Below the pieces are notes generated by a model that ran no database searches, was not told the origin of the DNA, and saw only the letters and a program-made list of their open reading frames with translations. A stretch of 64,000 nt of DNA from assembly GCA_016214995.1 (NCBI GenBank), contig JACRML010000009.1, positions 15,155-79,154 of the forward strand, read 5' to 3'. The DNA comes from Deltaproteobacteria bacterium. GTDB taxonomy: Bacteria; Desulfobacterota; GWC2-55-46; UBA9637. Shown in pieces: positions 1-21,334 of the stretch. The position numbers and the translations under genes were made by a program. Each line of letters starts with the position of its first letter. Positions within the stretch are counted from its first letter, which is position 1.

Positions 1-1092
1 TTTGATATAAGAGGTTACAGGAGTAAAACAGGCGGAGAAATACAGGGGTTTAATTTTTCAAGAAAGCTCAGAAAACTAAAATCTTCACGACTTGACAGGG
101 CGACAAAGCTTTTATTAACCGCAATTGACGAGGCGCTTCTTGAGGCAGGGCTTGAAAATGCTTTGCCTGCAGATACCGGTATTTTTTTTGGCACAACACT
201 TGGGGGTATGCTGTCAGGAGAGCTATACCACCGAAATATAGTTTTGGGCAAAAAGGCACGGCCTTCTCTCCTCCTTGATTACCTTGCCCATTATCAGGGC
301 ATTCACATTTCCAAAGAGTACGGTCTGAATCATACAGCATTCACTATATCCAATGCCTGCGCCTCCGGCACAAATGCAATAGGGTTTGCATATAACGAGA
401 TTCGTACAGGCGTTGTGAATACTGCGCTTGCGGGTGGATATGACACAATGTGTGAGTTTACATTTGCAGGTTTTAATTCGCTTCAGGCTGTTACTCAGAC
501 TCTTTGCAGGCCGTTTGATAAAAAGCGTGATGGCCTTGTGTTAGGAGAAGGTGTGGGCATTGTGGTGCTTGAAGAGATGTCCAGCGCTGTTTTAAGAAAT
601 GCAAATATCCTTGCAGAGGTTATTGGATACGGTGAATCAAGCGATGCATTCCATATAACCAGACCAGAACCAGAAGGAAGCGGCGCTGCGCTTGCCATAT
701 CCCGTGCATTGACATCTGCAGGTATTGATGCATTGGATATTGACTATATAAATGCCCATGGCACAGGCACACCGTATAATGATGTGATGGAGGCAAAGGC
801 TATTCAAAAGATCTTTGGCGCAGCAGGCAAAAATATACCCGTAAGTTCTGTAAAGTCTATGATTGGTCATCTCCTTGGCGGTGCAGGTGCTGTGGAGGCT
901 GTTATTACCGTAATGGCAATTAATAATGGGATATTACCGCCGAACATCAACTATGAAACCCCTGATCCAGAATGCCATCTCAATATTGTCCATAAGCCAG
1001 GACAGAAAACAAGCATAAAAAGGGCAATTTCAAATTCATTCGGTTTTGGCGGGGCAAATGCTGCAATAGTATTTCAGAGCGTCAATTCATGA
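1..1092 (+). CDS. beta-ketoacyl-ACP synthase, FabF/FabB-like (5' partial; frame open from window start)
   Basis: Open frame from nt 1 with no stop. Catalytic motifs are present: TISNACASGTNAIG (active Cys), NAHGTGTPYND, SMIGHLLGGAG. 4-nt ATGA overlap with the next gene. Confidence 0.85.
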   Translation, partial: FDIRGYRSKTGGEIQGFNFSRKLRKLKSSRLDRATKLLLTAIDEALLEAGLENALPADTGIFFGTTLGGMLSGELYHRNIVLGKKARPSLLLDYLAHYQGIHISKEYGLNHTAFTISNACASGTNAIGFAYNEIRTGVVNTALAGGYDTMCEFTFAGFNSLQAVTQTLCRPFDKKRDGLVLGEGVGIVVLEEMSSAVLRNANILAEVIGYGESSDAFHITRPEPEGSGAALAISRALTSAGIDALDIDYINAHGTGTPYNDVMEAKAIQKIFGAAGKNIPVSSVKSMIGHLLGGAGAVEAVITVMAINNGILPPNINYETPDPECHLNIVHKPGQKTSIKRAISNSFGFGGANAAIVFQSVNS

Positions 1093-2264
1093 CAAAGGAA
1101 TTTGTTATAACCGGCATAGGCATTGTAAGCGCGGCTGGTATAGGAAAAGATGAATTCTGGGATGCAGCAATAAACGGCAAATCAGGGATTAAGGAGATAA
1201 GCCATTTTGACACAAGCAGATACAAAAGCCATCTTGGCGGAGAGATAAGGGATTTTGACCTTGACGCAATCTTTTCTGACAGGAGATTCAGAAGGGTTGC
1301 AAATATATCAAAATACTCCCTTGCATCAAGCAAGCTTGCAGTAGATGATGCGGGTCTTGATTCAAACAAATGGGATGGTATAAAGGTCGGTCTTGTTGTC
1401 GGTGTTACGCATGGTGCCATTAATTATACCAGAGAATTCCATGCCGCGATGGTAAAGGATGGGCCGGCAGCCGTGAGCCCCATGCTTTTTTCTGACTCTG
1501 TGTTAAATGCCCCTGCGGGAAATGTTTCTATTGCATTTAACATAAAAGGTGCAGCCCATACGATTATAGGCGGTATGCCAACGGGCCTTGATGCCATTGC
1601 TTATGCGATAAAGATTATGCAGAGTAATAATCTTGATATGTGCATAGCAGGCGGGACAGAAGAGATTGACAGTATTGTCTTTGATAGCTATGCAAGACTC
1701 AGACTGCTTTCACCAAACAGTGGAAAACCAGAAGGGATTAAACCTTTTGGTATTGACAGAAACGGTTTTGTGGTTGGCGAGGGTGCCTGTATGCTTGTGC
1801 TTGAGGAAAAAAAGGCAGCAATTGAGCGCATGGCAAGAATTTACGCCGGCATTCATTCTGTTGATACAGCACTGCACATAAACCCAGCCCAATCTAACAA
1901 AACTTTTAGAGATATTGACACTGAAGCGACATATATAGCTGCCGGAGCAAATGGAACTTCAAAAGACAATATTGAAGCAAAAGTGCTTCAAGCTGTTTCT
2001 GCAAAAAGGCCTTTTATAGGAAATATAAAACCTATTACAGGAGAATGCTTCGCAGCAGGCAGTGCTATGCAGACCGCTTTAGCGGCTATGGTCATTCATA
2101 AAGGCATTATACCGCCTTCAAGGGTCGGCTATGATTTAATACCTGAAATAGATTGGGCCAGATTTAATCCTTATGCAGAAAATGCAGAGGTTGAGACAGC
2201 TATGGTAAGCTCAATAGGTTTGGAAGGAGAAGGTTCTTTTCTTGTATTGAAAAAAGTAAATTGA
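1089..2264 (+). CDS. KS-like protein lacking active-site Cys (chain-length-factor / KS-beta-like)
   Basis: KS N-terminal signature (VITGIGIVSAAG...) but the active-site position reads NAPAGNVSIAF with no Cys. Translationally coupled to the upstream KS, as in KS/CLF pairs. Confidence 0.7.
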   Translation: MTKEFVITGIGIVSAAGIGKDEFWDAAINGKSGIKEISHFDTSRYKSHLGGEIRDFDLDAIFSDRRFRRVANISKYSLASSKLAVDDAGLDSNKWDGIKVGLVVGVTHGAINYTREFHAAMVKDGPAAVSPMLFSDSVLNAPAGNVSIAFNIKGAAHTIIGGMPTGLDAIAYAIKIMQSNNLDMCIAGGTEEIDSIVFDSYARLRLLSPNSGKPEGIKPFGIDRNGFVVGEGACMLVLEEKKAAIERMARIYAGIHSVDTALHINPAQSNKTFRDIDTEATYIAAGANGTSKDNIEAKVLQAVSAKRPFIGNIKPITGECFAAGSAMQTALAAMVIHKGIIPPSRVGYDLIPEIDWARFNPYAENAEVETAMVSSIGLEGEGSFLVLKKVN

Positions 2265-2337: not shown

Positions 2338-2646
2338 ACACCCAAAAATAGACATTGATTTTTGGGGAAACCTGTAAGTTGGCTGTTAGACAACACACCC
2401 CTAAATCCCCTCTCGAGAGGGGACTAAAGGGGTGTGTTATTTGCTACGAGCCGTAACCCACCCCTTCCCCTCCTTGGAGGGGATAAAGGGGTGGGTTGTG
2501 AGGAACAAAAATTGGCCGATAACGAAGTATGCCTGTCCCCGAGTGTCTCTATCGGGGAGCAGCCAAATCGGCTGGCTCCACTTGCTGCGAAGCGATTGCA
2601 AGTGGAAGATGTAAAATAGCGAGGTTTTTAATCGCTATTTTACGGT
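2338..2646 (-). repeat. ~300-bp structured intergenic repeat, copy A (reverse orientation relative to copies B and C)
   Basis: Ends with the ccaaaaat-N8-atttttgg hairpin and the gtaaaatagcga..tcgctattttac hairpin. Shares the core cttccacttgcaatcgcttcgcagcaagtggag / gccgatttg with 12909-13254 and 25081-25373. Confidence 0.8.
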
Positions 2647-2650
2647 TACA

Positions 2651-3805
2651 ATGGAGCGGAGCGACATGGCTGTAGCCTTTGAAAATATAAAAACAGGTAT
2701 TGATATATTAAGACAATTCTTGGTTCCAAAGATGTTTACGGTCAAACTTCTTGAGTTTGCAGAAAGTGAGGGAATACTTTCTGTTATGCGAGAGACAGGC
2801 AATTCTCCGGTAAGGACATTCGGGGGTGGGTCTGACAATTTGTGGACACGAGAAGAGTTTTATAGCGCTGTTCATAGGAGGCTGGGGTATGAGACAGGGA
2901 ATGCTGTAAGGAAAAGAATGTTGGCAATTCTGCTGGATTTTCTTGAAGAGTGTGGTCATATTTCTCAGAAAAAACCTGGCATTTATACATATAATGCAGA
3001 TGCCAAGACAACGTCGCCCCTTTCCAGCGAAGACATGGAGGTAATGAGAGAAATATTTGGTGATCAGTCTATGTTTTTTGATAAGTGTATAGAATATGCA
3101 GGTGATTTTCTAAAAGGAAAGAATTATCTTTTTGGCTTTAATAAGGGTATGGAAGATGTATGGAATAGGTTTCTTGGCAATTATGAATTTAGTTTCGCAA
3201 GGGATGTGCTTCTTAAGCTGATGACTGTCGATACAATACCGGATTGCAATATATTGGACCTTTGCTACGGGACAGGACATGGTCTGGAGCGTATATGCAG
3301 GGATTTCCCTGACGCGGATATCACAGCAATAGATTTTACAGATGATATGAGACCGTTTGCAATGTCAAGGCTTGGCAAAGTTGCTTCAAAGGTCAAATGG
3401 ATTGACGCCGGCAGATGGAATGGCTTTGGAAGTAATCTTCCTTTTGAGGTCATGGTTTTTGATATGATATTCTTCTCGTGTGGTGACCCATATATACCAG
3501 AGCATTTGCGTGAGGGTGTATACAGGGATATATTCAGGGTTTTGAAACCAGGTGGAATCTTAGGTGTGATTGCGTGGGGTTATCCTGACAGGTCCAAAAG
3601 ACATATACAGAATGAATGGGTAAGAAGGGGTATATATATTCATGACTTCGCCGAAAGTGTGTGCAATGGATGGCATGGCTTCCGTGATATCGACAGCACC
3701 ATAAAAATGACCAGAAAAATAGGTTTTGTGGGCGCCAATGCCGTTTTTAATAATTTTTATATGCTTGATTCAGCTGTGTGGATGTTTAAAAGACCTGAGG
3801 TATGA
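2651..3805 (+). CDS. class I SAM-dependent methyltransferase with an N-terminal domain of unknown function (alternative start ATG 2666, with GGAG RBS)
   Basis: Motif I ILDLCYGTGHGL; Rossmann-like MT core; 4-nt overlap with the downstream KS. Confidence 0.7.
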   Translation: MERSDMAVAFENIKTGIDILRQFLVPKMFTVKLLEFAESEGILSVMRETGNSPVRTFGGGSDNLWTREEFYSAVHRRLGYETGNAVRKRMLAILLDFLEECGHISQKKPGIYTYNADAKTTSPLSSEDMEVMREIFGDQSMFFDKCIEYAGDFLKGKNYLFGFNKGMEDVWNRFLGNYEFSFARDVLLKLMTVDTIPDCNILDLCYGTGHGLERICRDFPDADITAIDFTDDMRPFAMSRLGKVASKVKWIDAGRWNGFGSNLPFEVMVFDMIFFSCGDPYIPEHLREGVYRDIFRVLKPGGILGVIAWGYPDRSKRHIQNEWVRRGIYIHDFAESVCNGWHGFRDIDSTIKMTRKIGFVGANAVFNNFYMLDSAVWMFKRPEV

Positions 3806-5043
3806 ACAGAGAGGTTGTTGTAACAGGCATGGGTATTCTATCTCCGCTTGAATCAGGGTGTGGGCTTGAAATATTCTGGCAAGAGTTATTGAAAGGAAAA
3901 AATGCGATAAAAGAGGTTAAATCTTTTGATGCAAAAAAATACGGATGCAATGTTGCCGGCGAGGTAGAAGGATTTGCGGATGCGATCAGCGATAAATGGA
4001 TTCGTTTTCTTGATTTGGCATTTAAACAGGCAATAGAAGATGCAAAACTTGTCCCCGAAATCTTTAATCGGGGAATTGATGCAAATGCTGTTCCTTTTGG
4101 TTTATCCGTTGGCACAGTGCTTGGAGGCATACTTGCCGGTCAGGAGGCATGGTTGCGTTCCCACGCGGAGCATGGGAACGAGGGAAATAGAGAGCAGGAG
4201 CTGCCTGAAAAATACCACCTCTTTTCAGGTGTGGATTATCTGGTCAAAAAATACGGTATTAATGGCCCGAATATGAGCATATCCACAGCCTGTGCTTCCG
4301 GCACAGATGCCATTGGAATAGCATACAGAAATATATTATGGGGAAAGGCCGATGTAATGATAGCAGGCGGAGCAGACACATTGAGCGAATTTGCCTTTGC
4401 CGGCTTTAACAGCCTTAAGGCCTTGACAAAAGATAAAGTAAGACCGTTTGATAAAAATAGAGACGGCCTTGCCCTTGGTGAAGGCGCCGCATTTTTAGTG
4501 TTGGAAGAGGCAAACCATGCTAAAAAAAGAAATGTAAAAATTTACGGCAAAATCATAGGCTATGCATCAAGATCAGACGCACATCATCTTACAGGGCCTG
4601 ATAAAGAGGGGAGGGGGCTGGCAGCGGCCATTAAAGCGGTGTTAAAAGAGGCAGACATATCAAAGCCTGTCTCCGAATGCTTTTATCGGGGAGTGGATTA
4701 TATAAATGCCCACGGCACAGGCACTGTGTATAACGATGCAATGGAGACTAAGGCGATAAAGCTCGCTTTTGGCAAATCCGCATACGAAATACCGATAAGT
4801 TCCATAAAGTCAATGATAGGTCACAGCTTCGGCGCAGGAGGCGCAATAGAGGCGGCGGCATGCCTTCTTGCCATCAAGAACGGCGCAATTCCTCCCACCA
4901 TAAACTATCAGGAAAAAGGCCCTGAATGCGACCTTGATTATGTGCCTAATATAGCGAGAAAGGCCGATGTCCAAACAGCCATTTCGCTCTCTGCCGGTTT
5001 CGGGGGGCAGAATGCGGCCATCCTTTTCAGCGCAGTGGAGTAG
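3802..5043 (+). CDS. beta-ketoacyl-ACP synthase (FabF/FabB-like, catalytic)
   Basis: ISTACASGTDAIG, NAHGTGTVYND, SMIGHSFGAGG; full-length 413 aa. Confidence 0.85.
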   Translation: MNREVVVTGMGILSPLESGCGLEIFWQELLKGKNAIKEVKSFDAKKYGCNVAGEVEGFADAISDKWIRFLDLAFKQAIEDAKLVPEIFNRGIDANAVPFGLSVGTVLGGILAGQEAWLRSHAEHGNEGNREQELPEKYHLFSGVDYLVKKYGINGPNMSISTACASGTDAIGIAYRNILWGKADVMIAGGADTLSEFAFAGFNSLKALTKDKVRPFDKNRDGLALGEGAAFLVLEEANHAKKRNVKIYGKIIGYASRSDAHHLTGPDKEGRGLAAAIKAVLKEADISKPVSECFYRGVDYINAHGTGTVYNDAMETKAIKLAFGKSAYEIPISSIKSMIGHSFGAGGAIEAAACLLAIKNGAIPPTINYQEKGPECDLDYVPNIARKADVQTAISLSAGFGGQNAAILFSAVE

Positions 5044-5114: not shown

Positions 5115-5801
5115 ATGTTTATGGATACAAAGATTTACATAACAGGCATGGGTATATGCAATGAAGTCCCAGCCAAGATAGAGACGCCAAAGGCAGTGAA
5201 GACCGTCATAAAGGCAGAGGAACTGGCTCTGGCCGCAGTGTCTGCGGCGTTCAAGCAAATTAGAACTTGGGAATTAGACACTGGCATTGTCTTCGGCATA
5301 GATAATGCCATAGATAGATGCAAGGCAGAGTTCTTTAAAGGCCTTCTCGCAGAGGGGCCTATCGGCGCAAGCCCGCTGCTGTTCCCTTACACAAGCCATA
5401 ATGTCATAACAGCCCAGGCGACCATTGCCTTTGGCATAAAGGGCGAAGACATCACGATTACCAGCGGGGCATCGTCTTTTATGAAGGCCATTGGATATGG
5501 CTTTGAGTTGCTGTATAGATGTGTAATGAAGTCGGTTATTGCAGGCGGTGTCTCCGAGAATGGGGCAATGGTTATTGTAATGGAGAGCCTTGCCCCTGAT
5601 GAATTAGGAATTAGGAATTGGGAATTAGAAATTAGTAATAACGGGATTATCCTAAAAGAGATTACAGGTTTTAAGAACCCTCTACAACAGGATGAGGCTA
5701 ATGTAAAATCAATAGAGGACTCTTTTCTTTTAGTGGAAGATTTTATTAAGGGGAAAAGTAAACTTGTTACAGAAGACTGGGTATTTCAAATTAAGGCTTG
5801 A
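5115..5801 (+). CDS. truncated KS-like (thiolase-fold N-terminal-like) protein without catalytic Cys; carries an in-frame heptamer-repeat insertion
   Basis: MFMDTKIYITGMGIC... resembles a KS N-terminus. The GSG-like motif has no Cys. (gaattag)n at 5601-5635 encodes LGIRNWELEISNN. Confidence 0.5.
   Translation: MFMDTKIYITGMGICNEVPAKIETPKAVKTVIKAEELALAAVSAAFKQIRTWELDTGIVFGIDNAIDRCKAEFFKGLLAEGPIGASPLLFPYTSHNVITAQATIAFGIKGEDITITSGASSFMKAIGYGFELLYRCVMKSVIAGGVSENGAMVIVMESLAPDELGIRNWELEISNNGIILKEITGFKNPLQQDEANVKSIEDSFLLVEDFIKGKSKLVTEDWVFQIKA
5601..5635. repeat. heptanucleotide tandem repeat (gaattag)n inside a CDS; a second short run lies at 5825-5842
   Basis: Direct reading: gaattaggaattaggaattgggaattagaaattag. 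Confidence 0.9.
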
Positions 5802-5841: not shown

Positions 5842-7149
5842 ATGGACTTCATATCAGATATAGACAGAAAAGACATAAAGGACATATCAGTCATTCAGGC
5901 CGAACTCCTCAAAGAAACAGTTTTCTATCTTTACAAAAACTCTCCGTTTTACAGAAAGAAAATCGCCCGCATCCCATCTATCAAGTGCATAGAGGATATT
6001 AGCGGTCTGTCCATAACAACAAAGGAAGACCTTCAGATAGACAACTGGGGTTTCCTCTGTGTGCCTAAGAACAATCTTTCAGAGATCGTTGCAACTACAG
6101 GCACAACCGGCGCGCATGTGTTCATAGGGCTTGCCAAAAAAGACATGGATAGGCTTGCGGAGAATGAAAAGAGATGCTTTTCCTATACAGGCGCCACACC
6201 GGACGACCTTTTTCTGTTATCCATTACCATGGATAATCTCTTCATCGCTGGAATGGCATACTATTCAGGGCTTCAGAGGCTTGGCGCAGGGGTTATCCGT
6301 ATGGGGCCGCATACCCCCAAAAGGCAGCTTGAGCTTATACACAGCCTTAAGCCTACCGGCATCGTGGCAGTGCCGTCTTTCATAATCGCCATTTACAAGC
6401 AGGCAGAAAAGGACAGGATAGACCTTAAAAAATCAAGCCTCAAAAAGATTGTCCTCATAGGCGAGGCCATAAGGAATGCGGATTTTTCTTCCAATACTCT
6501 TGGAAAAATGGTAGAAAAATTAAGCACGGCAGAGAGCTACTCCACCTACGGCATTACTGAGGCGCAGGTTGCATTTTGCGAATGTCAGTGTCATAAAGGG
6601 CTGCACTCTCACCCCGACCTTGTTTACGCCGAGATATTGGATGATGCAGGCAATACAGTTAAGGATGGTGAAATAGGAGAGCTTGTTGTAACCACATTCC
6701 AGATAGAGGGCATGCCGCTTTTAAGATACAGGACAGGCGACATGACCTTTAAGATAAGCGACAGATGTGATTGCGGAAGGACATCTGCCCGCATAGGGCC
6801 AATCATCGGCCGTAAGGCACAGAAGCTTAAGATAAAGGGAACGACAGTCTATCCTAAGGCCATAGAGAACATCTTGCTGGAGATAGATGGTGTTGAGAAT
6901 TATGTGATTGAGGCATATACAGGGGATGACCAGGCAGACCATGTTATCGTAAAGGTGGGCTCGCTTAAGACTCAAGACTCAAGACTCAAGACACAAGACT
7001 TAAAAGATGCTGTTTGTGAAAATATTAAGGCAAAGATAAGGGTTACGCCGCAGATTGAGATTATGCTGCCGCAGGAAGTGGAAAAGATTTTATATGAGGG
7101 CGGCAGGAGGAAGCCAATGACATTTGTGGACAGAAGGGGAAAGAGTTAG
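5842..7149 (+). CDS. phenylacetate-CoA ligase-like (PaaK / coenzyme F390 synthetase family) adenylate-forming enzyme
   Basis: ATTGTTGAHVF (P-loop-like SSGTTG motif), LRYRTGD (YRTGD). In-frame (actcaag)n at 6967-7001 encodes SLKTQDSRLKTQDLKD. Confidence 0.75.
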   Translation: MDFISDIDRKDIKDISVIQAELLKETVFYLYKNSPFYRKKIARIPSIKCIEDISGLSITTKEDLQIDNWGFLCVPKNNLSEIVATTGTTGAHVFIGLAKKDMDRLAENEKRCFSYTGATPDDLFLLSITMDNLFIAGMAYYSGLQRLGAGVIRMGPHTPKRQLELIHSLKPTGIVAVPSFIIAIYKQAEKDRIDLKKSSLKKIVLIGEAIRNADFSSNTLGKMVEKLSTAESYSTYGITEAQVAFCECQCHKGLHSHPDLVYAEILDDAGNTVKDGEIGELVVTTFQIEGMPLLRYRTGDMTFKISDRCDCGRTSARIGPIIGRKAQKLKIKGTTVYPKAIENILLEIDGVENYVIEAYTGDDQADHVIVKVGSLKTQDSRLKTQDLKDAVCENIKAKIRVTPQIEIMLPQEVEKILYEGGRRKPMTFVDRRGKS

Positions 7150-7238: not shown

Positions 7239-8375
7239 ATGACGCTTAATTATGAAACCATCCACGGCCTGGATTTTACAAATGAGGAGATAACAGCCTG
7301 TCTTAAAAGAGGAGGACTTTTAACCCTTGAGCTGGAGTTTAGCAAGGTATGCAATCTTAAGTGCATATACTGTTATGCAAGCGCAGGCAATGCCATGTCT
7401 GATGAAATGACCCTTGCTGAAATAAAGAACGTTATAGACCAGGCAGCAGAACTTGGGGCAGAAAAGATAATTCTCCTTGGCGGCGGCGAGCCTCTTATGT
7501 ATGAGGACATCCCATTGGTTGTAGAATATATTCATAAAAAGGGGCTTAAACAAAGTATTTTCACAAATGGCATGCTTCTCACAAAAGAGCTTAGCGGTTT
7601 TTTGTTTGAACGAAATGTTTCGGTAGTTGTCAAACACAATAGCAATATCCCGGAGGTTCAGGATAAGCTGGGAGGCGTCAAAGGCGCTTACGACAAGATT
7701 CGGCATGGTTTTGAATATCTGCTGGAGGCAGGCTATCCCAATGGCGCAGCTCAGCTTGGCATACAGACTGTTATATGCCGGCAGAATTTAAAAGAGATTC
7801 CTGATATGTGGATATGGGCGCGGGAGAGAGGCATCATACCTTACTTTGAGATAATTACAAATCAGGGAAGGGCAAAAGAGCATAAAGAACTTCATGTCTC
7901 AAATGAAGAGATACGAAAGGTATTTGAGGAGCTTGAATATATAGATGAGACAAGATTTGGGCACAAATGGAGTCCGCATCCAACCATTGCATCATTTACA
8001 TGCAAGAGGCATCTATATTCATGTCTGGTAAACTCACAGGGTTATATTCAACCGTGCACAGGTATTGATATGCCTGTTGGAAATGTTAAACATGAGAAAT
8101 TAAAAGATATATTAAAGAAAAGCCCTGTAATCCAGAAACTAAGAAATATCTATGCCAATATTCAGGGCGAATGCAAGGCCTGCGAATTTGCCTTTGACTG
8201 TTACGGCTGCAGAGGGAATGCGTATCAGACCACCGGCAATTACCTTGCCCCTGACCCTGCATGCTGGCTGAACAAGAAAGCCAAACGACAAGCAGGCGCA
8301 AAAAAGCAAGCCGTTTCTGAGGTCCCGCTTGGCGGGGAGGGCAGCGTTGCAGTAGATACTACAATAAATTTCTAA
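7239..8375 (+). CDS. radical SAM enzyme with C-terminal SPASM-like Cys-rich domain
   Basis: CNLKCIYCYA (CxxxCxxC) at the N-terminus; C-terminal CKACEFAFDCYGCRGNAY and other Cys clusters. Confidence 0.8.
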   Translation: MTLNYETIHGLDFTNEEITACLKRGGLLTLELEFSKVCNLKCIYCYASAGNAMSDEMTLAEIKNVIDQAAELGAEKIILLGGGEPLMYEDIPLVVEYIHKKGLKQSIFTNGMLLTKELSGFLFERNVSVVVKHNSNIPEVQDKLGGVKGAYDKIRHGFEYLLEAGYPNGAAQLGIQTVICRQNLKEIPDMWIWARERGIIPYFEIITNQGRAKEHKELHVSNEEIRKVFEELEYIDETRFGHKWSPHPTIASFTCKRHLYSCLVNSQGYIQPCTGIDMPVGNVKHEKLKDILKKSPVIQKLRNIYANIQGECKACEFAFDCYGCRGNAYQTTGNYLAPDPACWLNKKAKRQAGAKKQAVSEVPLGGEGSVAVDTTINF

Positions 8376-8380
8376 TTTCT

Positions 8381-8415
8381 AAACCCCCACACCAAAGATT
8401 TTGGTGTGGGGGTTT
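8381..8415 (+). terminator. perfect 15-bp-stem hairpin after the SPASM radical-SAM gene (terminator or attenuator candidate)
   Basis: aaacccccacaccaaa-gatt-ttggtgtgggggttt followed by a weak T-rich tract. Confidence 0.45.
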
Positions 8416-8464
8416 AGGATTTCTTAATACCATGTCAACTTATTTAAGTCGTTCACTATAATTC

Positions 8465-13254: not shown

Positions 13255-13297
13255 AAGCATAATTGCCTTTTTGCCGAGGATATGGTATCAATAAAAT

Positions 13298-14032
13298 ATG
13301 GATAAGAGAGTTGTTCTTGTTACCGGAGGAAGCCGTGGTATTGGTGAGGCTATATCACTTGCGTTCGGTGAAAAGAGTAATATTATTATTGTAAATTACC
13401 TTTCAAACAGGGAAAGGGCAGAGTCAGTTGTATCAAAGATTAAAGTTTCCGGAGGTGACGCTGTTGCAATAAAGAGTGATGTTTCAAAGCAGGCTGAGGC
13501 TTTCAGGATGGTGGATGAAGTGGTGGAGAGATACGGCAGGCTTGATGTTCTGGTTAATAATGCAGGAATGGCAAAAGGTGGTTTATTGATGCTTTTGGAT
13601 GAAAAGGATTGGGATAGTGTTATTGATGCAAACCTCAAGAGTGTTTTTAACTGCTGCAAGGCTGCAAGCAGGCAGATGATATCGCAAAAGAAGGGCATCA
13701 TAATTAATGTATCTTCCCTTAGCGGAATTACAGGCCTTTCAGGACAGAGCGATTATTCTGCTGCAAAAGGCGGGGTAATAGCATTCACAAAGGCCATTGC
13801 AAAAGAGCTTGCGCAATTCGGCATACTGGTAAATGCAGTTGCGCCTGGTGTAATAAATACAGATATGATTGGCGATATTCCGAATATCGTCAAAAAATTT
13901 TTTTTAGAAGCAATACCTTTAAAGAGATTCGGCAAACCTGAAGAGGTAGCTGGTATCGTAAAATTTCTTGCCTCTCCTGATGCGAGCTATATAACCGGAG
14001 AGACTATTGTTGTAAGCGGCGGATTGCCGTAA
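13298..14032 (+). CDS. fabG: 3-oxoacyl-ACP reductase (short-chain dehydrogenase)
   Basis: [16 protein letters not shown], the S...YSAAK catalytic triad region, and the C-terminal GETIVVSGG typical of FabG. Confidence 0.85.
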
Positions 14033-14206
14033 AAAAACCGTGAATCGTGATCTTGTTCCGTGACCATGAAGAAAGAAGTTGAGAAGATGGGAAGTTAAGA
14101 AGTTGAAATGGTAAGTTTTTTCTCAACTTCTCAATTTCTTAATTTCTGCATTTTCACGGTTATAGACAACGGACATGGACAACGGTATTTTATAAGGGAG
14201 ATAACC

Positions 14207-14455
14207 GTGTCGGACATTAAAGAAAAACTTAAAGAGATGCTGGTCAAAAGGCTGAAACTCAAAATGACAGCGCAGGATATTAAGGATGATGTCCCGCTCT
14301 TTGGAGAGGGTGGGTTGGGCCTTGATTCTATAGATGCGTTGGAACTTGTTGTTGGATTGCAGAAGGAGTTTAATGTTGTCATCAATGATAAGTCTGTAGC
14401 AGAAAAGGTTCTGGTATCTGTGAATAGCATTGTAGGGTTTATTGAAGAAAAGTAG
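14207..14455 (+). CDS. acyl carrier protein (GTG start with GGGAG RBS; the ORF-track ATG at 14108 is unlikely)
   Basis: LGLDSIDALELV phosphopantetheine-attachment motif (DSL/DSI); ~82 aa. Confidence 0.8.
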   Translation: MSDIKEKLKEMLVKRLKLKMTAQDIKDDVPLFGEGGLGLDSIDALELVVGLQKEFNVVINDKSVAEKVLVSVNSIVGFIEEK

Positions 14456-14523
14456 CAGGTTTACAATCGGTATGTTTATTGGTGTGCTTAAAAGACGTCC
14501 ACAAATGGGCAATCGCAAGAATT

Positions 14524-14943
14524 ATGAAAAATAATCCTCTGGACAGCTTGCCTCACAGCTACCCATTCAGGTTTTTAGATAAAATCATTGAATTAAGCGA
14601 TAAAAGAGGTGTTGCAATAAAAAATGTGACTATGAATGAAGAATTTTTTCAAGGTCATTTTAAAGAAAACCCAATAATGCCTGGTGTTTTGATAATAGAG
14701 ACAATGGCACAACTGGCAGGGCTTATAATGAATTGCGGTAAGGAAGAAAATAAGATTGCCTACCTTGCCCAGGTAAAGAATATTAAATTTAAAAGGCCTG
14801 TTATCCCAGGCGACCAATTGAAAATTTCGGCTGAAATAGGGCAGGATTTTGGTTCACTGGCAAGTTTTTCAGTAGCAGTGCATATAGATAATAATGTTGC
14901 GGCAGAAGGTGAACTGGTGATGGCTGTCAGTAAGGGTACTTAA
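14524..14943 (+). CDS. fabZ: 3-hydroxyacyl-ACP dehydratase, FabZ/FabA-like hotdog fold (start uncertain; ORF opens at 14479)
   Basis: LPHSYPFRFLDKI...FFQGHF..NPIMPGVLIIE (FabZ signature H and E region). Confidence 0.75.
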   Translation: MKNNPLDSLPHSYPFRFLDKIIELSDKRGVAIKNVTMNEEFFQGHFKENPIMPGVLIIETMAQLAGLIMNCGKEENKIAYLAQVKNIKFKRPVIPGDQLKISAEIGQDFGSLASFSVAVHIDNNVAAEGELVMAVSKGT

Positions 14944-14964: not shown

Positions 14965-15321
14965 ATGGCAAGGAAAATATTCATGATGATATTTGCTGCA
15001 TCACTTTTATTTTCTCATATAGCTAATTCTCAGGATGCCTCATTTGATATCAAGGCTGCCAAAGATAGATGGGAGCCTTCATCTATCACAATAAAAAAAG
15101 GGGAGAAGGTCAGTATTAAGTTTATATCAGTTGATGTTGACCATGCTGTTGAGCTTGGCGAGTTTGGCTTGAAAAAAGTTCTCATACCCGAAAAGGATTC
15201 TGTTACTCTCGAGTTTACAGCAACTAAAACAGGCACATTTTCTTTTCCATGCATAAAATATTGCAGTTGGAGGCATCTGGTTGGCGCAAGGCCGAGATTG
15301 GAAATTAAGGTGGTAGAATGA
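14965..15321 (+). CDS. small secreted protein, possibly a cupredoxin-like fold (tentative)
   Basis: N-terminal signal peptide; beta-rich region with DHAVELG ... PCIKYCSWRH; no firm family assignment. Confidence 0.3.
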   Translation: MARKIFMMIFAASLLFSHIANSQDASFDIKAAKDRWEPSSITIKKGEKVSIKFISVDVDHAVELGEFGLKKVLIPEKDSVTLEFTATKTGTFSFPCIKYCSWRHLVGARPRLEIKVVE

Positions 15322-15677
15322 TTTTTTCCGTTGGCGTAGATATCGCGAGCATCGAGCGGTTAAAAAAATCTGTGTATAATAATGCCTTTCTTGACAGACT
15401 GCTTACTGATAACGAAAGGCAATATGTCTTTACAAAAAGGCATTCATACAGGCACATTGCAGGCAGATTTGCTGCAAAAGAGGCTGTTATGAAGGCATTA
15501 GGCACAGGTTGGAGTAAAGAGATTGGGTGGAGGGATATCGAAATTATAAATACGTCTTCTGGCAGACCTGTAGTACGGTTGCATTCAAACGTCGCCGTTG
15601 TTGCACATGGGAAAAAGGTTTTTTTAAGTCTTGCATATGCAAAGGATATTGCTTTGGCAGTTGCCATTGTAGAATGA
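15318..15677 (+). CDS. acpS: holo-ACP synthase (4'-phosphopantetheinyl transferase AcpS)
   Basis: MIFSVGVDIASIERL...RFAAKEAVMKALGTG, ~119 aa, typical AcpS. Confidence 0.8.
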   Translation: MIFSVGVDIASIERLKKSVYNNAFLDRLLTDNERQYVFTKRHSYRHIAGRFAAKEAVMKALGTGWSKEIGWRDIEIINTSSGRPVVRLHSNVAVVAHGKKVFLSLAYAKDIALAVAIVE

Positions 15678-15681: not shown

Positions 15682-16335
15682 ATGAAATATCTGATAGTAA
15701 TTCCTGCCTATAATGAAGAAAGATACATTGCTTCCCTCTTAAATAACCTTCCCGTTGTTACAAGAGACATCATAGTTGTTGATGATGGTTCAAAAGATGC
15801 CACATACCAGATTGTGCAGAAAATAGGCATTCCTGTAATCCGTCAGCCTCATCAGGGCAAAGGAGCTGCACTTAAGACCGGTTTTAAATATGCTATTGAA
15901 AACGGATATGACTGGGTAATTACAATAGATGGGGATGGTCAGCATGATTGGAAGGATATTCCTAGGTTTATTGAAACAATATCCAAAGGGGGCGCTGATG
16001 TGATTATCGGTTCAAGGATGGCTGATGTTGCAGCGATGCCGATAGTAAGAAGAGTTACAAACAAATTTATGTCCAGCCTATTGTCAAAATTGATAGGCCA
16101 TTATATAGCAGATACCCAGTGTGGTTTCAGAGCAATAAATTCAAAAGTTTTAAGGGATATTGTTCTTGAAACTTCGCATTATGACACAGAGTCTGAACTT
16201 CTTATAAAGGCGGGCAGGGCAAAGTATAATATCTCATCAATCCCTATCAGAACTATTTATAATGGTTCACAGAGTAATATAAATAAATTTGTAGATACTA
16301 TGCGTTTTGTAAAACTTTTATGGAAGGCATTGTGA
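15682..16335 (+). CDS. family 2 glycosyltransferase (dolichol-phosphate mannosyltransferase-like)
   Basis: IVVDDGSKDAT, DGDGQHD motifs of GT2/DPM1-like enzymes. Confidence 0.75.
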   Translation: MKYLIVIPAYNEERYIASLLNNLPVVTRDIIVVDDGSKDATYQIVQKIGIPVIRQPHQGKGAALKTGFKYAIENGYDWVITIDGDGQHDWKDIPRFIETISKGGADVIIGSRMADVAAMPIVRRVTNKFMSSLLSKLIGHYIADTQCGFRAINSKVLRDIVLETSHYDTESELLIKAGRAKYNISSIPIRTIYNGSQSNINKFVDTMRFVKLLWKAL

Positions 16336-17186
16336 CATCTATCAACCATCAACAAATTTATGTTTCCTGCAATATATGCGGTTCTTCCAACGAAAAACTT
16401 ATTACAACCCAAAATGGCTACAAGGTTGTTAAATGCATAGGTTGTGGTTTTGTATATGTGAATCCAAGGCCAACCAGTGAAACCCTTAAACAACTTTATC
16501 TGACATACCTGCCGGAAAAGATTGAAGACCCATTGCTGTGGGATACGTACATGAAAGATGTATTTGCAAAGGCTGCTAATATCTTGGTGAAACAGTTTCC
16601 TGATGGAGGAAAGATACTTGATATTGGCTGCGGCTACGGTTTTTTTCTTTCACGGATGAAAGCGAAAGGATGGCAGGTATATGGCATTGATGTGTCAGAA
16701 ACTGCTGTTTCTTATGCATCAGGCCATGGTCTGGATGTAGCATTAGGGACATTGGATAATGTCAAATATGAAGATAAATCATTTGATGTTGTAACATTAT
16801 TCTATGTGCTTGAGCATCTTCCTGACCCATTAAAGGCCATCCAGGAGATAAGAAGGATTTTAAATCCAAATGGGTTGTTATTACTGCGAGTGCCGCATAC
16901 AACACCAATAGTAAGGATATTATCTTTACTGGGCATAAAAAATAATCTGTATGACCCACCATTTCATTTAAACGATTTTTCTAATGTTGCTATTAAGGGT
17001 ATTTTGAAAATGGCCGGCTTCCATAATATACACACATTTATTGGGGGTGTTACAAGCCCTCCTGGCGCCGCAGTACGACTGACAACATTATTTTTCGGGC
17101 TGCTTGCAGAGGCGGTCTATCGCTTAAGCCTTGGGAAATTTCTTTTACCCGGGGTAGCAAAGACTACTATTGCAAAAAAAATATAA
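16320..17186 (+). CDS. class I SAM-dependent methyltransferase with N-terminal Zn-ribbon
   Basis: CNICGSS...CIGCG zinc ribbon; ILDIGCGYGFF motif I. Confidence 0.75.
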   Translation: MEGIVTSINHQQIYVSCNICGSSNEKLITTQNGYKVVKCIGCGFVYVNPRPTSETLKQLYLTYLPEKIEDPLLWDTYMKDVFAKAANILVKQFPDGGKILDIGCGYGFFLSRMKAKGWQVYGIDVSETAVSYASGHGLDVALGTLDNVKYEDKSFDVVTLFYVLEHLPDPLKAIQEIRRILNPNGLLLLRVPHTTPIVRILSLLGIKNNLYDPPFHLNDFSNVAIKGILKMAGFHNIHTFIGGVTSPPGAAVRLTTLFFGLLAEAVYRLSLGKFLLPGVAKTTIAKKI

Positions 17187-17210: not shown

Positions 17211-18662
17211 CTATGATACCTGTTTTAAAATCTCTCTTGCGGCCTTGAATCCGGAATATATTGCAGCTATTATACCGCCTCCAAGCCCGCTCCAATGTCC
17301 TGCAAGATAAAGGTTGTCAATTCCTGTCTTTATTGGCCTTAGCCATGGGACAGGCTGCCAGCCGTAGGCAGCGCCTCTGAAATTAGCGGTATATCTCTCA
17401 AGAGTTGCAGGGGTTGCAGCCTCTATGTGGATTGCGTTATCTTTAATGGTTGGAATAATCTTTTCAGCTCGCCTTATAATAATTTCAGAAAGCCTTTTCT
17501 TTTCTTCTTTCCATTTTTTGGTATATGTATAATCAGTCAGTTGATGTATGACAATGGAGTGGCTGTTTTGAGGCGCCATTGAATGATCGGTTATGCTCGG
17601 TATTGTAAGCCCGATTGGCGCGGCATCTGTGAATGAGTTTTTGAAGTCAAAGGCCTTTTCCATATCAAATGATGAAAAATATCCTATACTGGAAGAACTG
17701 CCAAGAAAACTCAAATCAGCCGCTGTGCCAATATATAATATAAAGAATGAAGGAGAGATTCCGTATTCATTGAATCTGTCTTGTGCCTCAGAAGAATGTC
17801 TGCCTCCGTTCAATAGGGAGAATGTTTCTGTATAATCAATATTAGATACAATAAAATGTGATGTATACTGAGTCCCGTCGGCTGTCGCTACACCAATAAC
17901 TTTGTTATCTTCCATAATAATCTCTGTTATCTCTTTTTTAAACAAAATATGTCCGCCTTTTTCCTTTATGCCTGTAGTCAATGTGTCCGGAAGTTTCTGA
18001 CATCCGCCCACAACCCTGTATGCACCTGATGTAAAATAACTCATCAAGGCTGCTGCCGTATTTATGACTGATATTTTAGATGGCGGAAGGCCGAGGAAGG
18101 AGCATCTGTCTGACAGGATGGACTTCAGCCTTTCATCATACAGATAGCTGTCCATCAGGCTTTTATATGTAAGCCCGCCATAATTTAGAAAGACAGATGG
18201 GAGAGCTGGTTTGTTTTTTTCATATTGTGCAATTCCAGTTAACCATCTGTTGATACCACTGTAGATGTTTCCCATTTCTTTAAAGAAGCTGTCTATGTTT
18301 TTTTCCGACGGAAATAATTCCTTAAGGTTTTCTATGTATGCATTTACATTGTTCCATGTCTTTATTCTCATTCCGGGGAAAACACTTTCTCTTATGGGGT
18401 CAATTTTAATGAAATCTATTTTATCCCCTATATCCAACTGCTGCAGCAGATATCTGACAGCCCCATTTTTATCCATGCCGCTGAAACAGTCAACTGCGCT
18501 GTCAAAGATAAAGCCCTTTCTCTTAAAAGAGGTAAGGTAGCCGCCCGGGTTTGCGTTTTTTTCAAGCACTAACACTTTGAGGCCTTTGCTTGCCAGAATT
18601 CCAGCGCAGGCTAGTCCACCTATACCGCTTCCGATTACTATGACATCGTAGTCTTTTTTCAT
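17211..18662 (-). CDS. FAD-dependent oxidoreductase, phytoene desaturase (CrtI)/amine-oxidase-like
   Basis: N-terminal YDVIVIGSGIGGLACAGILASKG...EKN..GG dinucleotide-binding motif; ~480 aa. Confidence 0.75.
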   Translation of the reverse strand: MKKDYDVIVIGSGIGGLACAGILASKGLKVLVLEKNANPGGYLTSFKRKGFIFDSAVDCFSGMDKNGAVRYLLQQLDIGDKIDFIKIDPIRESVFPGMRIKTWNNVNAYIENLKELFPSEKNIDSFFKEMGNIYSGINRWLTGIAQYEKNKPALPSVFLNYGGLTYKSLMDSYLYDERLKSILSDRCSFLGLPPSKISVINTAAALMSYFTSGAYRVVGGCQKLPDTLTTGIKEKGGHILFKKEITEIIMEDNKVIGVATADGTQYTSHFIVSNIDYTETFSLLNGGRHSSEAQDRFNEYGISPSFFILYIGTAADLSFLGSSSSIGYFSSFDMEKAFDFKNSFTDAAPIGLTIPSITDHSMAPQNSHSIVIHQLTDYTYTKKWKEEKKRLSEIIIRRAEKIIPTIKDNAIHIEAATPATLERYTANFRGAAYGWQPVPWLRPIKTGIDNLYLAGHWSGLGGGIIAAIYSGFKAAREILKQVS

Positions 18663-18850: not shown

Positions 18851-21334
18851 TTATTCTTCAATATAATGCATAAGGGCTGGCAGGAGGAACAAGGCGCATA
18901 AGAGGCAGGCAATTACGCCTATTGTTATTATTGCCCCCAACGTTGCTATTCCACGAAACCCTGTTGTTACCAGAGACCCAAACCCTGCTATTGTTGTCAT
19001 GGCGCACATGACAACAGTTTTACCAGCATGTTTAACAGAGTCCTCAGCATTTTTGCGTTCCTCTTCAATATAGTCCTGCAGTATATAAATGCCATAATCC
19101 ACACCAATGCCAAACAGCAACGTTATTGCCCCTATGTTTATATAATTGAATTGTATTCCTGTGAATCCCATAAATCCAAGGGTCAGGATAAAGCCTGTGG
19201 CCAGCGGTATCTTGACAAGAAAGACCCTTTTTATGCTCTTAAACTGAAAATAGATAATAAAAAATATTATTATAAATGCAATTGTGGATGCAGCTACGCT
19301 TTCTCTTATAATAGAGGTCTTAAGATTTGCAAACATAATGGATGTGCCTGTAATATTAAATCCCTTGCCTAGCCCTTCAAGCTCTTTTTCTATAAGTGTT
19401 GTTTTTGCCTCACTCCACTGCTCGCTGTCCTGGTAAAGATAGGCAGCAATCTTCAACCTATCTTTGTTGTAAAAATATCTTATCTTTTTATCATTGCTGT
19501 CTTCAAGCGTCTTTAAGCCGAGCGGTTGTTTAATATCAATGGCATTTCCGATGCCCTTGATATAAGCTGCATATTGTTCGGCAACAACAAAACCATTTTC
19601 TTGTAATGCCTGTATAAATATCTTTTCCATTCTATCCGGGTCAATAGAATCTCTTATCTCTTTTAAAACAAAGATGGCTTCCATCTGCTTTGACAGAGGC
19701 GGCAGAAACATATTAAGGCCGCTGTGGCTGGATATAATCCCGGCCGATTGCCATTTGCCTATAAGGGTTTCAAGCTTATCATACCGGTCCATTAATCCTT
19801 CTTTATTTTCAGCCTCAATAATAATCATTAACGGATTTTTTTGCCTTCCAAAATGTTCGGCAATCTCTTTCTCAAGAAGCATAGCATGGCTTGTTTTTGG
19901 GCCCACGGCCTCAGGTCTGTTGTCAAATTTTATGCCTGACAATCCAATCAAGGATATTGCCAGCAGGGCTATGCTTACAAGAATAACTGCCCTTGGATAA
20001 TCTTTTACTATTTTGCCTATACCTTCCATGCCAATCCTTTGTTCTTTACTGCTGAACAATAGCCCTTTTTTGCGGGATTCTATAGCTATTATCAGCGATG
20101 TCATGATTATGAGTGAAGAAAAGAGACAGGCAAGTACGCCGATACCTGCTATAATTCCAAGCTGATAGAGGCCTTTAAAACTTGTAACCACTATGCTGAA
20201 AAATGCGGCAGATGTTGTTACAGCGCCTGCAACAACGCCAGGAGCGGTTTTTGTAAGGGCAGTGTAAAGCGAACATCTTAAATCTCCGGTTTTTATATAT
20301 TCTTCTTCGCACCTGTTGAAGATGTGGATTATATAATCTATGCCCAGGCCCATAAGCATGGCAGTAACAATGCTGCTTGCCATATTGAGATTTCCAAATA
20401 TAAGATATGCAATGCCAAGCGTCCATGAGAGGGCTGTTAAAAGTGTTAGCGCAGCTATTATCAGAACAAAAACCCTTTTCCTATACACAAATTGAAATAA
20501 AAAAAAGACCAGCAGTGTAGATGTAATTGCATTGATAATCACATCCTTCTGTATAGTGGCATGCGCCTCTATGGCAAAAGCATAAGGGCCGGCAAGCCCA
20601 AGCTGCAAATCATGGTTTTTCCCCATTTGTTTTTTTGTGTCTTCAAGTATATGGTCAATCTCGTTCTTAAACCTTTTCACAAATCCTATATCTCTGCTTG
20701 AGCCGGCTGGTTTTACAAAGATGATGAGCATTGAGTTGTTGTTGCTTATATAATAACCATGTTTGATATTGATTTTATCCATCCCTTGTCTAAACAGAGA
20801 GGAAAGCATAATGGAGCGGATATTGAGCGGGTCACGTACAATAAGTTCAGAATCAAGCGGCGTGCTGACTGGCGAGAGGAGCTGATTTTTGTTTTGTTTT
20901 ATCTGTCTTTCTATTCCTTGTTTTGTGAGCCTTGTCTTTAACTCTTCAAGTGCGTGCTTGTCCATATAGAGGGAGAAGTTTTTTATCATCATTTCTTTGT
21001 CTAACTGAACGATATTATAATCTACATATTCTATAAGAGGAGAGTCTTTAAGTCTCCTGCTAAGAGACTCTGTCAATTCAAAATATTCATCCACCTTTTT
21101 ATCTTTTGACTTAAGCACTACAATAAGATTATCCATGCTGCCAAAATCATTAAGGAAATTTACAAAGGTATCTATGGCAGGATTTTTTGCTGGCAGCGCA
21201 TCCAGAATATCGGTTTTTATATCTATCCTGAATATCAGAGCAGTGGTTAAAATTGTCAGGATGATTGAGGATACAAGTATAGCTTGGTGAAATCTAAAAA
21301 CGAATGAACTTATTTTTTTCAGGAGGTTTGTCAT
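18851..21334 (-). CDS. MMPL/RND-family lipid exporter (HpnN-like)
   Basis: 827 aa, two blocks of TM helices with large periplasmic loops, typical MMPL architecture. Confidence 0.75.
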   Translation of the reverse strand: MTNLLKKISSFVFRFHQAILVSSIILTILTTALIFRIDIKTDILDALPAKNPAIDTFVNFLNDFGSMDNLIVVLKSKDKKVDEYFELTESLSRRLKDSPLIEYVDYNIVQLDKEMMIKNFSLYMDKHALEELKTRLTKQGIERQIKQNKNQLLSPVSTPLDSELIVRDPLNIRSIMLSSLFRQGMDKINIKHGYYISNNNSMLIIFVKPAGSSRDIGFVKRFKNEIDHILEDTKKQMGKNHDLQLGLAGPYAFAIEAHATIQKDVIINAITSTLLVFFLFQFVYRKRVFVLIIAALTLLTALSWTLGIAYLIFGNLNMASSIVTAMLMGLGIDYIIHIFNRCEEEYIKTGDLRCSLYTALTKTAPGVVAGAVTTSAAFFSIVVTSFKGLYQLGIIAGIGVLACLFSSLIIMTSLIIAIESRKKGLLFSSKEQRIGMEGIGKIVKDYPRAVILVSIALLAISLIGLSGIKFDNRPEAVGPKTSHAMLLEKEIAEHFGRQKNPLMIIIEAENKEGLMDRYDKLETLIGKWQSAGIISSHSGLNMFLPPLSKQMEAIFVLKEIRDSIDPDRMEKIFIQALQENGFVVAEQYAAYIKGIGNAIDIKQPLGLKTLEDSNDKKIRYFYNKDRLKIAAYLYQDSEQWSEAKTTLIEKELEGLGKGFNITGTSIMFANLKTSIIRESVAASTIAFIIIFFIIYFQFKSIKRVFLVKIPLATGFILTLGFMGFTGIQFNYINIGAITLLFGIGVDYGIYILQDYIEEERKNAEDSVKHAGKTVVMCAMTTIAGFGSLVTTGFRGIATLGAIITIGVIACLLCALFLLPALMHYIEE

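Follow-up and report, generated by a model that had tools for sequence, protein, structure and literature searches.

A deltaproteobacterial gene cluster orthologous to the kuste3349-3335 operon of Kuenenia stuttgartiensis and its predicted radical SAM-tailored lipid product

We analysed a 64,000-nucleotide stretch of DNA, hereafter the window, from a Deltaproteobacteria bacterium (GTDB lineage Bacteria; Desulfobacterota; GWC2-55-46; UBA9637; NCBI GenBank assembly GCA_016214995.1, contig JACRML010000009.1, positions 15,155 to 79,154 of the forward strand), which opens with about 21.3 kb of type II fatty acid synthase (FAS)- and polyketide synthase (PKS)-like genes accompanied by two radical S-adenosylmethionine (SAM) enzymes. 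Judged by gene content and order, this region is an orthologue of the kuste3349-3335 operon of Kuenenia stuttgartiensis. On balance we consider it probable that it encodes a dedicated, self-contained type II FAS/PKS-like line working on its own acyl carrier protein (ACP), whose product would be a methylated, partly unsaturated lipid or glycolipid, tailored by the radical SAM enzymes, exported by an MMPL pump and distinct from ladderanes; the data establish the gene content, the state of the active sites, the orthology and the conservation of linkage, and the order of the reactions and the product are what we infer. The cluster family has been known since 2009, and the window holds a further member, set apart by insertions particular to its lineage and by rearrangement at its 3' end. 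Among the smaller new points on the family, kuste3345 and its counterpart in the window prove to be a truncated chain length factor (CLF), and the AmxMT1 methyltransferase family clearly extends beyond anammox bacteria.

Orthology and distribution of the cluster

Protein families were assigned by Pfam and NCBIfam scans of the open reading frames (ORFs) of the window, and the statements below on housekeeping genes and on the anammox Cluster I refer to these scanned ORFs of the 64-kb window. Every gene named in a first-pass annotation of the sequence corresponds to an ORF with a significant family match, at the position it had been given (Table 1). Relatives were sought in one genome per GTDB species, which gave 485 stretches, and the best 80 of these 485 loci were compared using tblastn and reciprocal-best-hit clustering; these are the related loci referred to throughout.

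The published gene list for Kuenenia gives kuste3349 as FabF, kuste3348 as a non-canonical FabF, kuste3347 as a SAM methylase, kuste3346 as FabF and kuste3345 as 'unknown', together with a phenylacetyl-CoA ligase (kuste3344), two radical SAM proteins (kuste3343 and kuste3342), FabG (kuste3341), an ACP (kuste3340), FabZ (kuste3339), a SAM methylase (kuste3338), a phytoene-desaturase-like protein (kuste3336) and a glycosyltransferase (kuste3335) (PMC4790861, PMC2649909). The first 12 shared genes stand one-to-one and in identical order, kuste3349 to kuste3338, while those for the MMPL exporter (kuste3337), the CrtI-like flavoprotein (kuste3336) and the family 2 glycosyltransferase (GT2; kuste3335) are present as reciprocal best hits but are rearranged in the window. 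Because the published list maps one-to-one onto our gene order, the resemblance to anammox ladderane-candidate clusters noted in the first-pass annotation is orthology, which is also borne out by the collinearity, identities of 30-61% to Brocadia and Jettenia proteins, the match to AmxMT1 and the TIGR04072 assignment described below. Set against kuste3352-kuste3335, the window adds a PD40/Omp85 protein, a cupredoxin and AcpS, has its CrtI-like and MMPL genes inverted onto the minus strand and its GT2 gene ahead of that for the second methyltransferase, MT2, encodes a GT2 without the C-terminal extension and carries repeats in two intergenic gaps. Genes for an ATP-grasp protein, a secreted protein and a polysaccharide deacetylase/DUF3473, which usually precede the conserved order in related loci, would lie outside the window if present, and the host is not an anammox bacterium.

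The order KS1-CLF-MT1-KS2-tKS-ligase-SPASM-B12-FabG-ACP-FabZ-(AcpS)-MT2-MMPL-PDH-GT2, where KS stands for ketosynthase, tKS for its truncated relative, MT for methyltransferase, SPASM and B12 for the two radical SAM enzymes and PDH for the CrtI-like flavoprotein, is repeated in about 25 independent loci, which represent at least four phyla, and for that reason the gene set is more than a chance assembly. Synteny across related genomes had been proposed as a check in the first-pass annotation and is found here in these loci; the homologous clusters that it placed in deltaproteobacteria agree with the literature (PMC2649909). The order is kept in Brocadia, Jettenia and Brocadiaceae (30-61% identity per protein), in Dissulfurispiraceae, Thermodesulfovibrionales and other Nitrospirota, in one Methylomirabilales metagenome-assembled genome (MAG) and in several deltaproteobacterial/Thermodesulfobacteriota MAGs, and the window is also collinear with the anammox loci L009 and L012-L014. 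No anammox-specific gene was found within the operon among the compared loci.

When KS2, the ligase and the SPASM and B12 proteins were concatenated, the window grouped with deltaproteobacterial MAGs (63-77% identity) and was about 53% identical to a clade of Nitrospirota and Brocadia/Jettenia copies. The anammox loci L012, L013 and L014 nest among the Nitrospirota loci L011, L021, L018 and L020 at 66-72% identity, above some pairs of Nitrospirota loci, and this nesting suggests horizontal transfer between these phyla. Possibly it reflects instead the mis-binning of individual MAGs, although many independent MAGs show the same pattern. Upstream of KS1, relatives carry a conserved hydrophobic ORF of about 60-80 amino acids (L016, 2400-2600; L003, ~794-1036; L012, ~2352-2531), probably with two transmembrane segments. 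It occupies the place of kuste3350, listed as a '66-aa putative ACP'; in the relatives, this place yielded no ACP motif.

Ketosynthases and their triad-less partners

The first-pass annotation had described two catalytic ketosynthases and a CLF-like ketosynthase lacking the cysteine, coupled by ATGA, and both the triad residues and the overlap of the frames confirm this. The KS1/CLF overlap is one of three of this kind, the others joining MT1 to KS2 and the cupredoxin to AcpS. KS1, which is open to the window edge and misses about 40 amino acids, has an intact Cys-His-His triad with the motifs ACASG, HGTGT and GHLLG and is 60% identical to its Jettenia and Brocadiaceae orthologues. KS2 scores 378 bits against TIGR03150 fabF (cutoff 494) and is 50-54% identical to its orthologues in anammox bacteria and Nitrospirota.

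The best PDB match of the CLF is chain C of 9s5h (E 8e-55), with which it has the TGEC motif in common. Chain C carries Val/Asn/Glu at the triad positions, as published for kuste3606/amxFabFmut (PMC2649909). Because its partner, chain B, has Cys-His-His, the entry looks like the amxFabF heterodimer of a bioRxiv preprint (10.64898/2026.05.19.726425), the text of which gives no PDB code. This heterodimer, amxFabFhet, decarboxylates malonyl-ACP and behaves as a KS/CLF pair. The tKS, conserved in 21 of the related loci, carries Ala in place of the active-site Cys and is without the C-terminal domain. It aligns with the CLF family in hhalign with a probability of 99% (E 8e-18, CLF columns 62-256), and its best PDB match is the same chain as that of the CLF (E 1.8e-6). 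By these profile matches tKS and the 'unknown' kuste3345 (PMC4790861) are truncated CLF paralogues. Since CLF and tKS are both triad-less relatives of amxFabFmut, the window holds two ketosynthases, each with a dead partner.

Ligase, tailoring enzymes and exporter

MT1 matches AmxMT1 of Brocadia fulgida (PDB 8HD2) over nearly its full length (E 4.6e-72) and is the orthologue of this crystallised enzyme, for which the structure paper describes ACP binding and a pocket like that of PKS C-methyltransferases. The AmxMT1 family was described in 2009 as nearly without relatives, and it is rare, with 82 clusters among 5.8 billion proteins; every match with a named source is a MAG. The family clearly exists outside anammox bacteria. 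The ligase scores best against FlxY_rubin (472 bits, E 1.6e-141), under the 520-bit cutoff but far above its scores of 197-233 bits against PaaK models, and its best PDB matches are PaaK structures.

Both radical SAM enzymes carry the CX3CX2C motif, at residues 38-45 in the SPASM enzyme, which also has a C-terminal Cys cluster, and at residues 207-214 in the B12-binding enzyme. The former is 56-60% identical to its anammox and Nitrospirota orthologues. The latter passes the TIGR04072 equivalog ('lipid biosynthesis B12-binding/radical SAM protein') with 411 bits against a cutoff of 360 and is 52-54% identical to Brocadia/Jettenia proteins, with homologues in Nitrospirota and many deltaproteobacterial MAGs as well. 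Its next-best families are BzaD, TsrM and PhpK, all methyltransferases, and because these are the nearest characterised families a methylase activity is probable for the enzyme. A very strong hairpin (8377-8419, 20-bp stem) with a T-rich tail behind it lies in the spacer of 89 bp that separates the SPASM and B12 genes; it could act as an internal terminator or as an attenuator, or affect the stability of the RNA. The window gave no match in Rfam and tRNA scans, hence no cobalamin or SAM riboswitch, and a promoter scan of it gave a signal at chance level.

MT2 has an N-terminal CxxC...CxxC motif and is 45-51% identical to its anammox and Nitrospirota orthologues. The best NCBIfam matches of GT2, all under cutoff, are polyprenyl-phosphate sugar transferases (AglJ, PpgS), and the protein counts 217 amino acids against 337-379 in the anammox and Nitrospirota orthologues. 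The CrtI-like flavoprotein scores 191 bits against TIGR02730 (cutoff 587) and the MMPL exporter 244 bits against TIGR03480 HpnN, also under cutoff. Each is a reciprocal best hit in 10 loci, the flavoprotein to the PDH gene with 42-46% identity and the exporter with 34-38%.

The FabG, ACP, FabZ and AcpS genes

FabG scores 285 bits against TIGR01830 (cutoff 298) and 254 bits against FlxB_rubin_SDR. The ACP reaches 39 bits against TIGR00517 (cutoff 70); its homology begins at residue 33, relatives are 83-99 amino acids long, and translation probably begins near 14200, at a codon other than ATG. Its best PDB match, 9ls6, is an unnamed ACP, from which we draw no link to amxACP. FabZ passes NF000582 (151 bits, cutoff 113), has the His and Glu of the GHF...IETMAQ motif and matches the canonical FabZ structure 4h4g at 101.6 bits, compared with 87.8 bits for amxFabZ (8ayc). 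AcpS passes TIGR00516 (88 bits, cutoff 60) and lies within the cluster in the Nitrospirota loci L011, L016, L017 and L022 as well.

These scores bear on whether the region might simply be a housekeeping FAS-II operon whose neighbours were gained by chance, a possibility that the first-pass annotation had itself raised against its reading. FabZ and AcpS pass their housekeeping models and FabG falls just under its own, but we find this explanation hardly credible. No match to fabH, fabD, fabI or acc genes was found among the scanned ORFs of the window, and KS1, KS2 and the ACP lie well under the FabF/AcpP equivalog cutoffs. The radical SAM and methyltransferase genes are linked to the set in every related locus, with the order of radical SAM, methyltransferase, ligase and CLF genes kept in about 25 loci across phyla. 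Kuenenia, moreover, has a separate canonical set, kustd1386-1389 (PMC2649909).

Proposed pathway

The pathway that we favour would begin with AcpS converting the ACP to its holo form. A starter could be supplied by the KS/CLF heterodimer decarboxylating malonyl-ACP, as the related amxFabF2/amxFabFmut pair does in vitro, or by the PaaK/FlxY-like ligase activating a carboxylic acid. KS1 with the CLF, and KS2 with tKS, would extend the chain to defined lengths, FabG reducing and FabZ dehydrating each unit; the cluster has no gene for an enoyl reductase. The ACP-bound chain may then be tailored by MT1, with its AmxMT1-type, PKS C-methyltransferase-like pocket, and would probably be methylated by the B12 radical SAM enzyme, while the SPASM enzyme and the CrtI-like flavoprotein could make further changes to it. 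GT2 and MT2 are the candidates for a head-group or anchor step, and the MMPL/HpnN-like pump would export the product towards the outer membrane. As lpxK and a lipid A acyltransferase gene lie in the window, the host is a diderm, which fits MMPL export.

Several points weigh against this pathway. When the Kuenenia genes were expressed in E. coli, no new lipid appeared and neither of the radical SAM proteins was detected (PMC4790861). The ligase may equally serve in downstream activation rather than in priming, no thioesterase or acyltransferase for chain release or attachment was found in the window, and FabZ and AcpS pass housekeeping equivalog cutoffs, so that bulk fatty-acid synthesis may draw on part of the set.

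Ladderanes, methyl-branched acids and pigments as less likely products

The synthesis of ladderane (concatenated cyclobutane) lipids, as first proposed for the Kuenenia operon, seems to us very improbable. The region is orthologous to kuste3335-3352, one of four clusters proposed for ladderanes, and its two radical SAM enzymes and desaturase-like flavoprotein would in principle be capable of cyclisations. However, the operon is shared, without any anammox-specific gene, by Nitrospirota, Methylomirabilales and many MAGs from several deltaproteobacterial lineages, none of them known for ladderanes. Rattray (2009) described synteny with Desulfotalea psychrophila, Geobacter and Pelobacter; ladderanes were not found in D. 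psychrophila, which has the homologues DP1853 and DP1855 (PMC2649909), and a reviewer of that paper considered that this result undermines a ring-closing role for kuste3342 and kuste3343. Javidpour (2016) found no CrtI activity for kuste3336 (PMC4790861), and antiSMASH is known to make 'ladderane' calls in Desulfobacterota and in further phyla. Current structural work places the making of ladderanes in Cluster I (kuste3603-3608), an anammox-exclusive locus that comprises amxACP, amxFabZ, amxFabF2/amxFabFmut, PDH and a B12 radical SAM enzyme. The window resembles it in its types of module, namely a ketosynthase whose partner lacks the triad, an ACP of its own, FabZ, a CrtI-like flavoprotein and a B12 radical SAM enzyme, and its CLF is nearest in the PDB to amxFabFmut, with the His-to-Glu 'TGEC' motif in common. 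The six-gene architecture of Cluster I is nevertheless absent from the window, which comes from a deltaproteobacterial MAG: the cluster here is a different and much larger one, its FabZ stands closer to the canonical enzyme than to amxFabZ, and its type is not exclusive to ladderane producers, as Cluster I is reported to be. There is likewise only a slim chance that the conserved 16-gene operon makes a cyclised lipid, its two radical SAM enzymes forming, for instance, cyclopropane, cyclobutane or other carbocyclic rings; were this true, the lineage of the window, Nitrospirota and Methylomirabilales would make overlooked ladderane-related or ring-bearing fatty lipids. We also think it highly unlikely that the cluster serves to make mid-chain methyl-branched fatty acids of the 10-methyl-C16 type, with the B12 radical SAM enzyme or MT2 and the flavoprotein installing the branch. 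Such acids are reported from anammox bacteria, Methylomirabilis, Nitrospira and some sulfate reducers. The distribution of the cluster over anammox bacteria, Methylomirabilales, Nitrospirota and deltaproteobacteria overlaps these taxa, and three methyltransferase-type enzymes are encoded in it, yet a system that installs a branch would have no need of two KS/CLF pairs, a ligase, GT2 or an exporter, and the major lipids of D. psychrophila in the published lipid table show no methyl-branched acids.

An aryl-polyene or flexirubin-type pigment also appears unlikely, though less so than the other alternatives. A FlxY-like ligase would load an aromatic acid, KS/CLF with FabG and FabZ would assemble a polyene in the absence of an enoyl reductase, decoration would fall to the methyltransferases and the B12 radical SAM enzyme, and GT2 and MMPL would anchor and export the product. 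Features in common with the known clusters (ApeO/ApeC, FlxY, FlxB) are ketosynthases and CLF-like partners including a short one, an adenylating ligase of the FlxY/PaaK type, a FabG-like ketoreductase, an ACP of their own, a methyltransferase, GT2, an MMPL exporter and the lack of an enoyl reductase. The best family of the ligase in the window is the flexirubin one, and its FabG matches FlxB; BzaD and TsrM, among the nearest characterised relatives of the B12 enzyme, methylate aromatic carbons. Both flexirubin matches, however, lie under cutoff. The dehydratase is a canonical FabZ and not of the ApeI/ApeP type (ApeI-like score 22.9, cutoff 28.5). The ketosynthases and CLF are nearer to FabF than to ApeO/ApeC: the CLF scores 98 bits against ApeO (6smo_B) but 158-190 bits against FabF/amxFabF structures, and tKS matches ApeC (6smo_C) with an E-value of 0.5. 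A starter-supply gene, that is, for an ammonia-lyase or chorismate-lyase, was found neither in the window nor in related loci, and a LolA-like protein, a thioesterase and a second dehydratase are not present, whereas two radical SAM enzymes, AmxMT1 and the CrtI-like flavoprotein are additional to the pigment clusters. The first-pass annotation had called the combination of KS/CLF, ACP, AcpS and MMPL typical of aryl-polyene clusters; these components are indeed there, but their affinity to such clusters is only distant.

The cluster also has a partial parallel in what we term Type B clusters of Geobacterales/Syntrophaceae (L047, L056 and L067, with others in L033-L081). These share a TIGR04072-like B12 radical SAM enzyme (44-47% identity), an ACP, FabG, a KS/CLF pair, FabZ and GT2 with the window, but have two to four extra tandem B12 radical SAM paralogues and lack the ligase, an orthologue of the SPASM enzyme, MT1, tKS and MT2.

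Since the operon is common gene-for-gene to many non-anammox bacteria, the kuste3335-3352 type is probably not the ladderane pathway, and another tailored envelope lipid is a more likely product than ladderanes. Several candidate clusters exist for ladderane synthesis, and three results argue that this operon makes a different and wider-spread lipid: the gene-for-gene sharing with non-anammox lineages, the inclusion in it of the supposedly anammox-specific AmxMT1 and kuste3345 (truncated CLF), and the nesting of anammox copies within those of Nitrospirota. This outcome narrows the ladderane search to Cluster I and points to a conserved radical SAM-tailored envelope lipid, approachable in organisms easier to handle than anammox bacteria.

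Insertions, repeats and rearrangements

The first-pass annotation had counted the PD40/Omp85 giant and the cupredoxin-like protein among the cluster's members. Both are present, yet the comparison of loci places them outside the core. A PD40/Omp85 gene follows the B12 gene only in L002, L003, L005, L007 and L062, which form the window's own clade; the family, named 'BamA/TamA family outer membrane protein' at NCBI, counts more than 2700 relatives, with those of Geomonas, Pelobacteraceae and Nitrospirota about 50% identical. Because the family is widespread and is unlinked to the cluster outside this clade, the protein is a lineage-specific insertion, and we rejected it as a cluster-specific novelty. 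The cupredoxin-like gene, found among the 80 related loci in L007 only, is a lineage-specific insertion too. Its CX3CX3H motif recalls CuA sites, with weak matches to CtaC and the NosZ C-terminus and with the usual Met apparently replaced.

A palindrome-rich intergenic repeat, some 300 bp long and similar to miniature inverted-repeat transposable elements (MITE) or repetitive extragenic palindromes (REP), has been inserted into the operon twice and accounts for its two gaps of about 390 bp. Copies lie at 2338-2643 (+), 25081-25379 (-) and, partial, 13053-13254 (-), with fragments at 59109-59140, 42967-42990 and 41381-41420; the copy at 25081-25379, between the GGDEF and PabC-like genes, is 80% identical over 310 bp. 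The closest relative, L003, lacks the repeat and has a CLF-MT1 spacer of 64 bp. A 75-amino-acid ORF at 13067-13294 was rejected as a gene, as it lies inside the repeat and has no homologue. In close relatives, the interval between KS2 and tKS holds differing extra genes: L007 (5417-6910) has an additional B12 radical SAM gene, and L003 (5844-6839) encodes a protein that weakly resembles SMP-30/gluconolactonase (SGL) and has a lipoprotein-like N-terminus. The position is apparently open to insertions.

Gene content, boundaries and flanking genes

The genes of the cluster are collected in Table 1; the G+C content of the region is about 41%. The right end at about 21.3 kb given in the first-pass annotation holds, as the tested genes on the right flank are not conserved beside the cluster. 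Its left end does not, since the frame of KS1 is open at base 1 and the cluster therefore continues beyond the left edge of the window.

Table 1. Genes of the cluster, with positions in the window and the match or feature that identifies each
Gene product	Position	Strand	Basis
KS1, catalytic ketosynthase, kuste3349 type	1..1092	+	Pfam ketoacyl-synt N and C domains
CLF-like ketosynthase without catalytic triad, kuste3348 type	1089..2264	+	triad Met/Gly/Glu
MT1, AmxMT1-type SAM methyltransferase, kuste3347 type	2651..3805	+	PDB 8HD2 match
KS2, catalytic ketosynthase, kuste3346 type	3802..5043	+	Cys-His-His intact
tKS, truncated, CLF-like, kuste3345 type	5115..5801	+	hhalign to CLF family
PaaK/FlxY-like adenylate-forming ligase, kuste3344 type	5842..7149	+	NCBIfam FlxY_rubin, PaaK structures
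SPASM radical SAM enzyme, kuste3343 type	7239..8375	+	Pfam Radical_SAM and SPASM
B12-binding radical SAM enzyme, kuste3342 type	8465..9922	+	TIGR04072 rSAM_ladder_B12
PD40 beta-propeller/Omp85-type outer-membrane protein, ~1000 aa	9906..12902	+	Pfam PD40, Omp85
FabG-type ketoreductase, kuste3341 type	13298..14032	+	TIGR01830, FlxB_rubin_SDR
Dedicated ACP, kuste3340 type	14108..14455	+	Pfam PP-binding; motif GLDSID
FabZ-type dehydratase, kuste3339 type	14479..14943	+	NF000582
Small secreted cupredoxin-like protein	14965..15321	+	Pfam Cupredoxin_1
AcpS, holo-ACP synthase	15318..15677	+	TIGR00516
GT2 glycosyltransferase, catalytic domain alone, kuste3335 type	15682..16335	+	Pfam Glycos_transf_2
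MT2, class I SAM methyltransferase, kuste3338 type	16320..17186	+	Pfam Methyltransf_23, Methyltransf_11
CrtI/CrtISO-like FAD oxidoreductase, kuste3336 type	17211..18662	-	Pfam Amino_oxidase
MMPL/HpnN-like RND exporter, kuste3337 type	18851..21334	-	Pfam MMPL

Beyond the MMPL gene lie those for an AsrB-like FAD/NAD/Fe-S reductase (FNR), a 4Fe-4S protein, a GGDEF protein, PabC- and PabB-like enzymes and regulators, followed farther right by the housekeeping genes purB, purC, carA, carB, recG, lpxK and a lipid A acyltransferase gene. The FNR, 4Fe-4S, GGDEF, PabC and PabB genes and a 128-amino-acid ORF are kept beside the cluster in none of the 80 related loci. The AsrB-like reductase and the 4Fe-4S dicluster protein are encoded by mutually overlapping genes (21489-23427, -) that adjoin the MMPL gene, and they could serve as electron donors to the radical SAM enzymes or the flavoprotein. 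Being nearby in 0 of 80 related loci, this pair and the PabB/PabC-like genes were rejected as parts of the cluster.

Two further features of the window lie away from the cluster. Downstream of carA, and separated from it by two unassigned ORFs, carB (carbamoyl-phosphate synthase, large subunit) is divided between two genes that overlap (50689-52485 and 52482-54224). Genes for a tyrosine recombinase of the XerC/D-like kind and for an HNH endonuclease containing three 'HNH repeat' domains lie less than 5 kb apart (39360-40256 and 43850-44731), and the pair may be the remnant of a mobile element.

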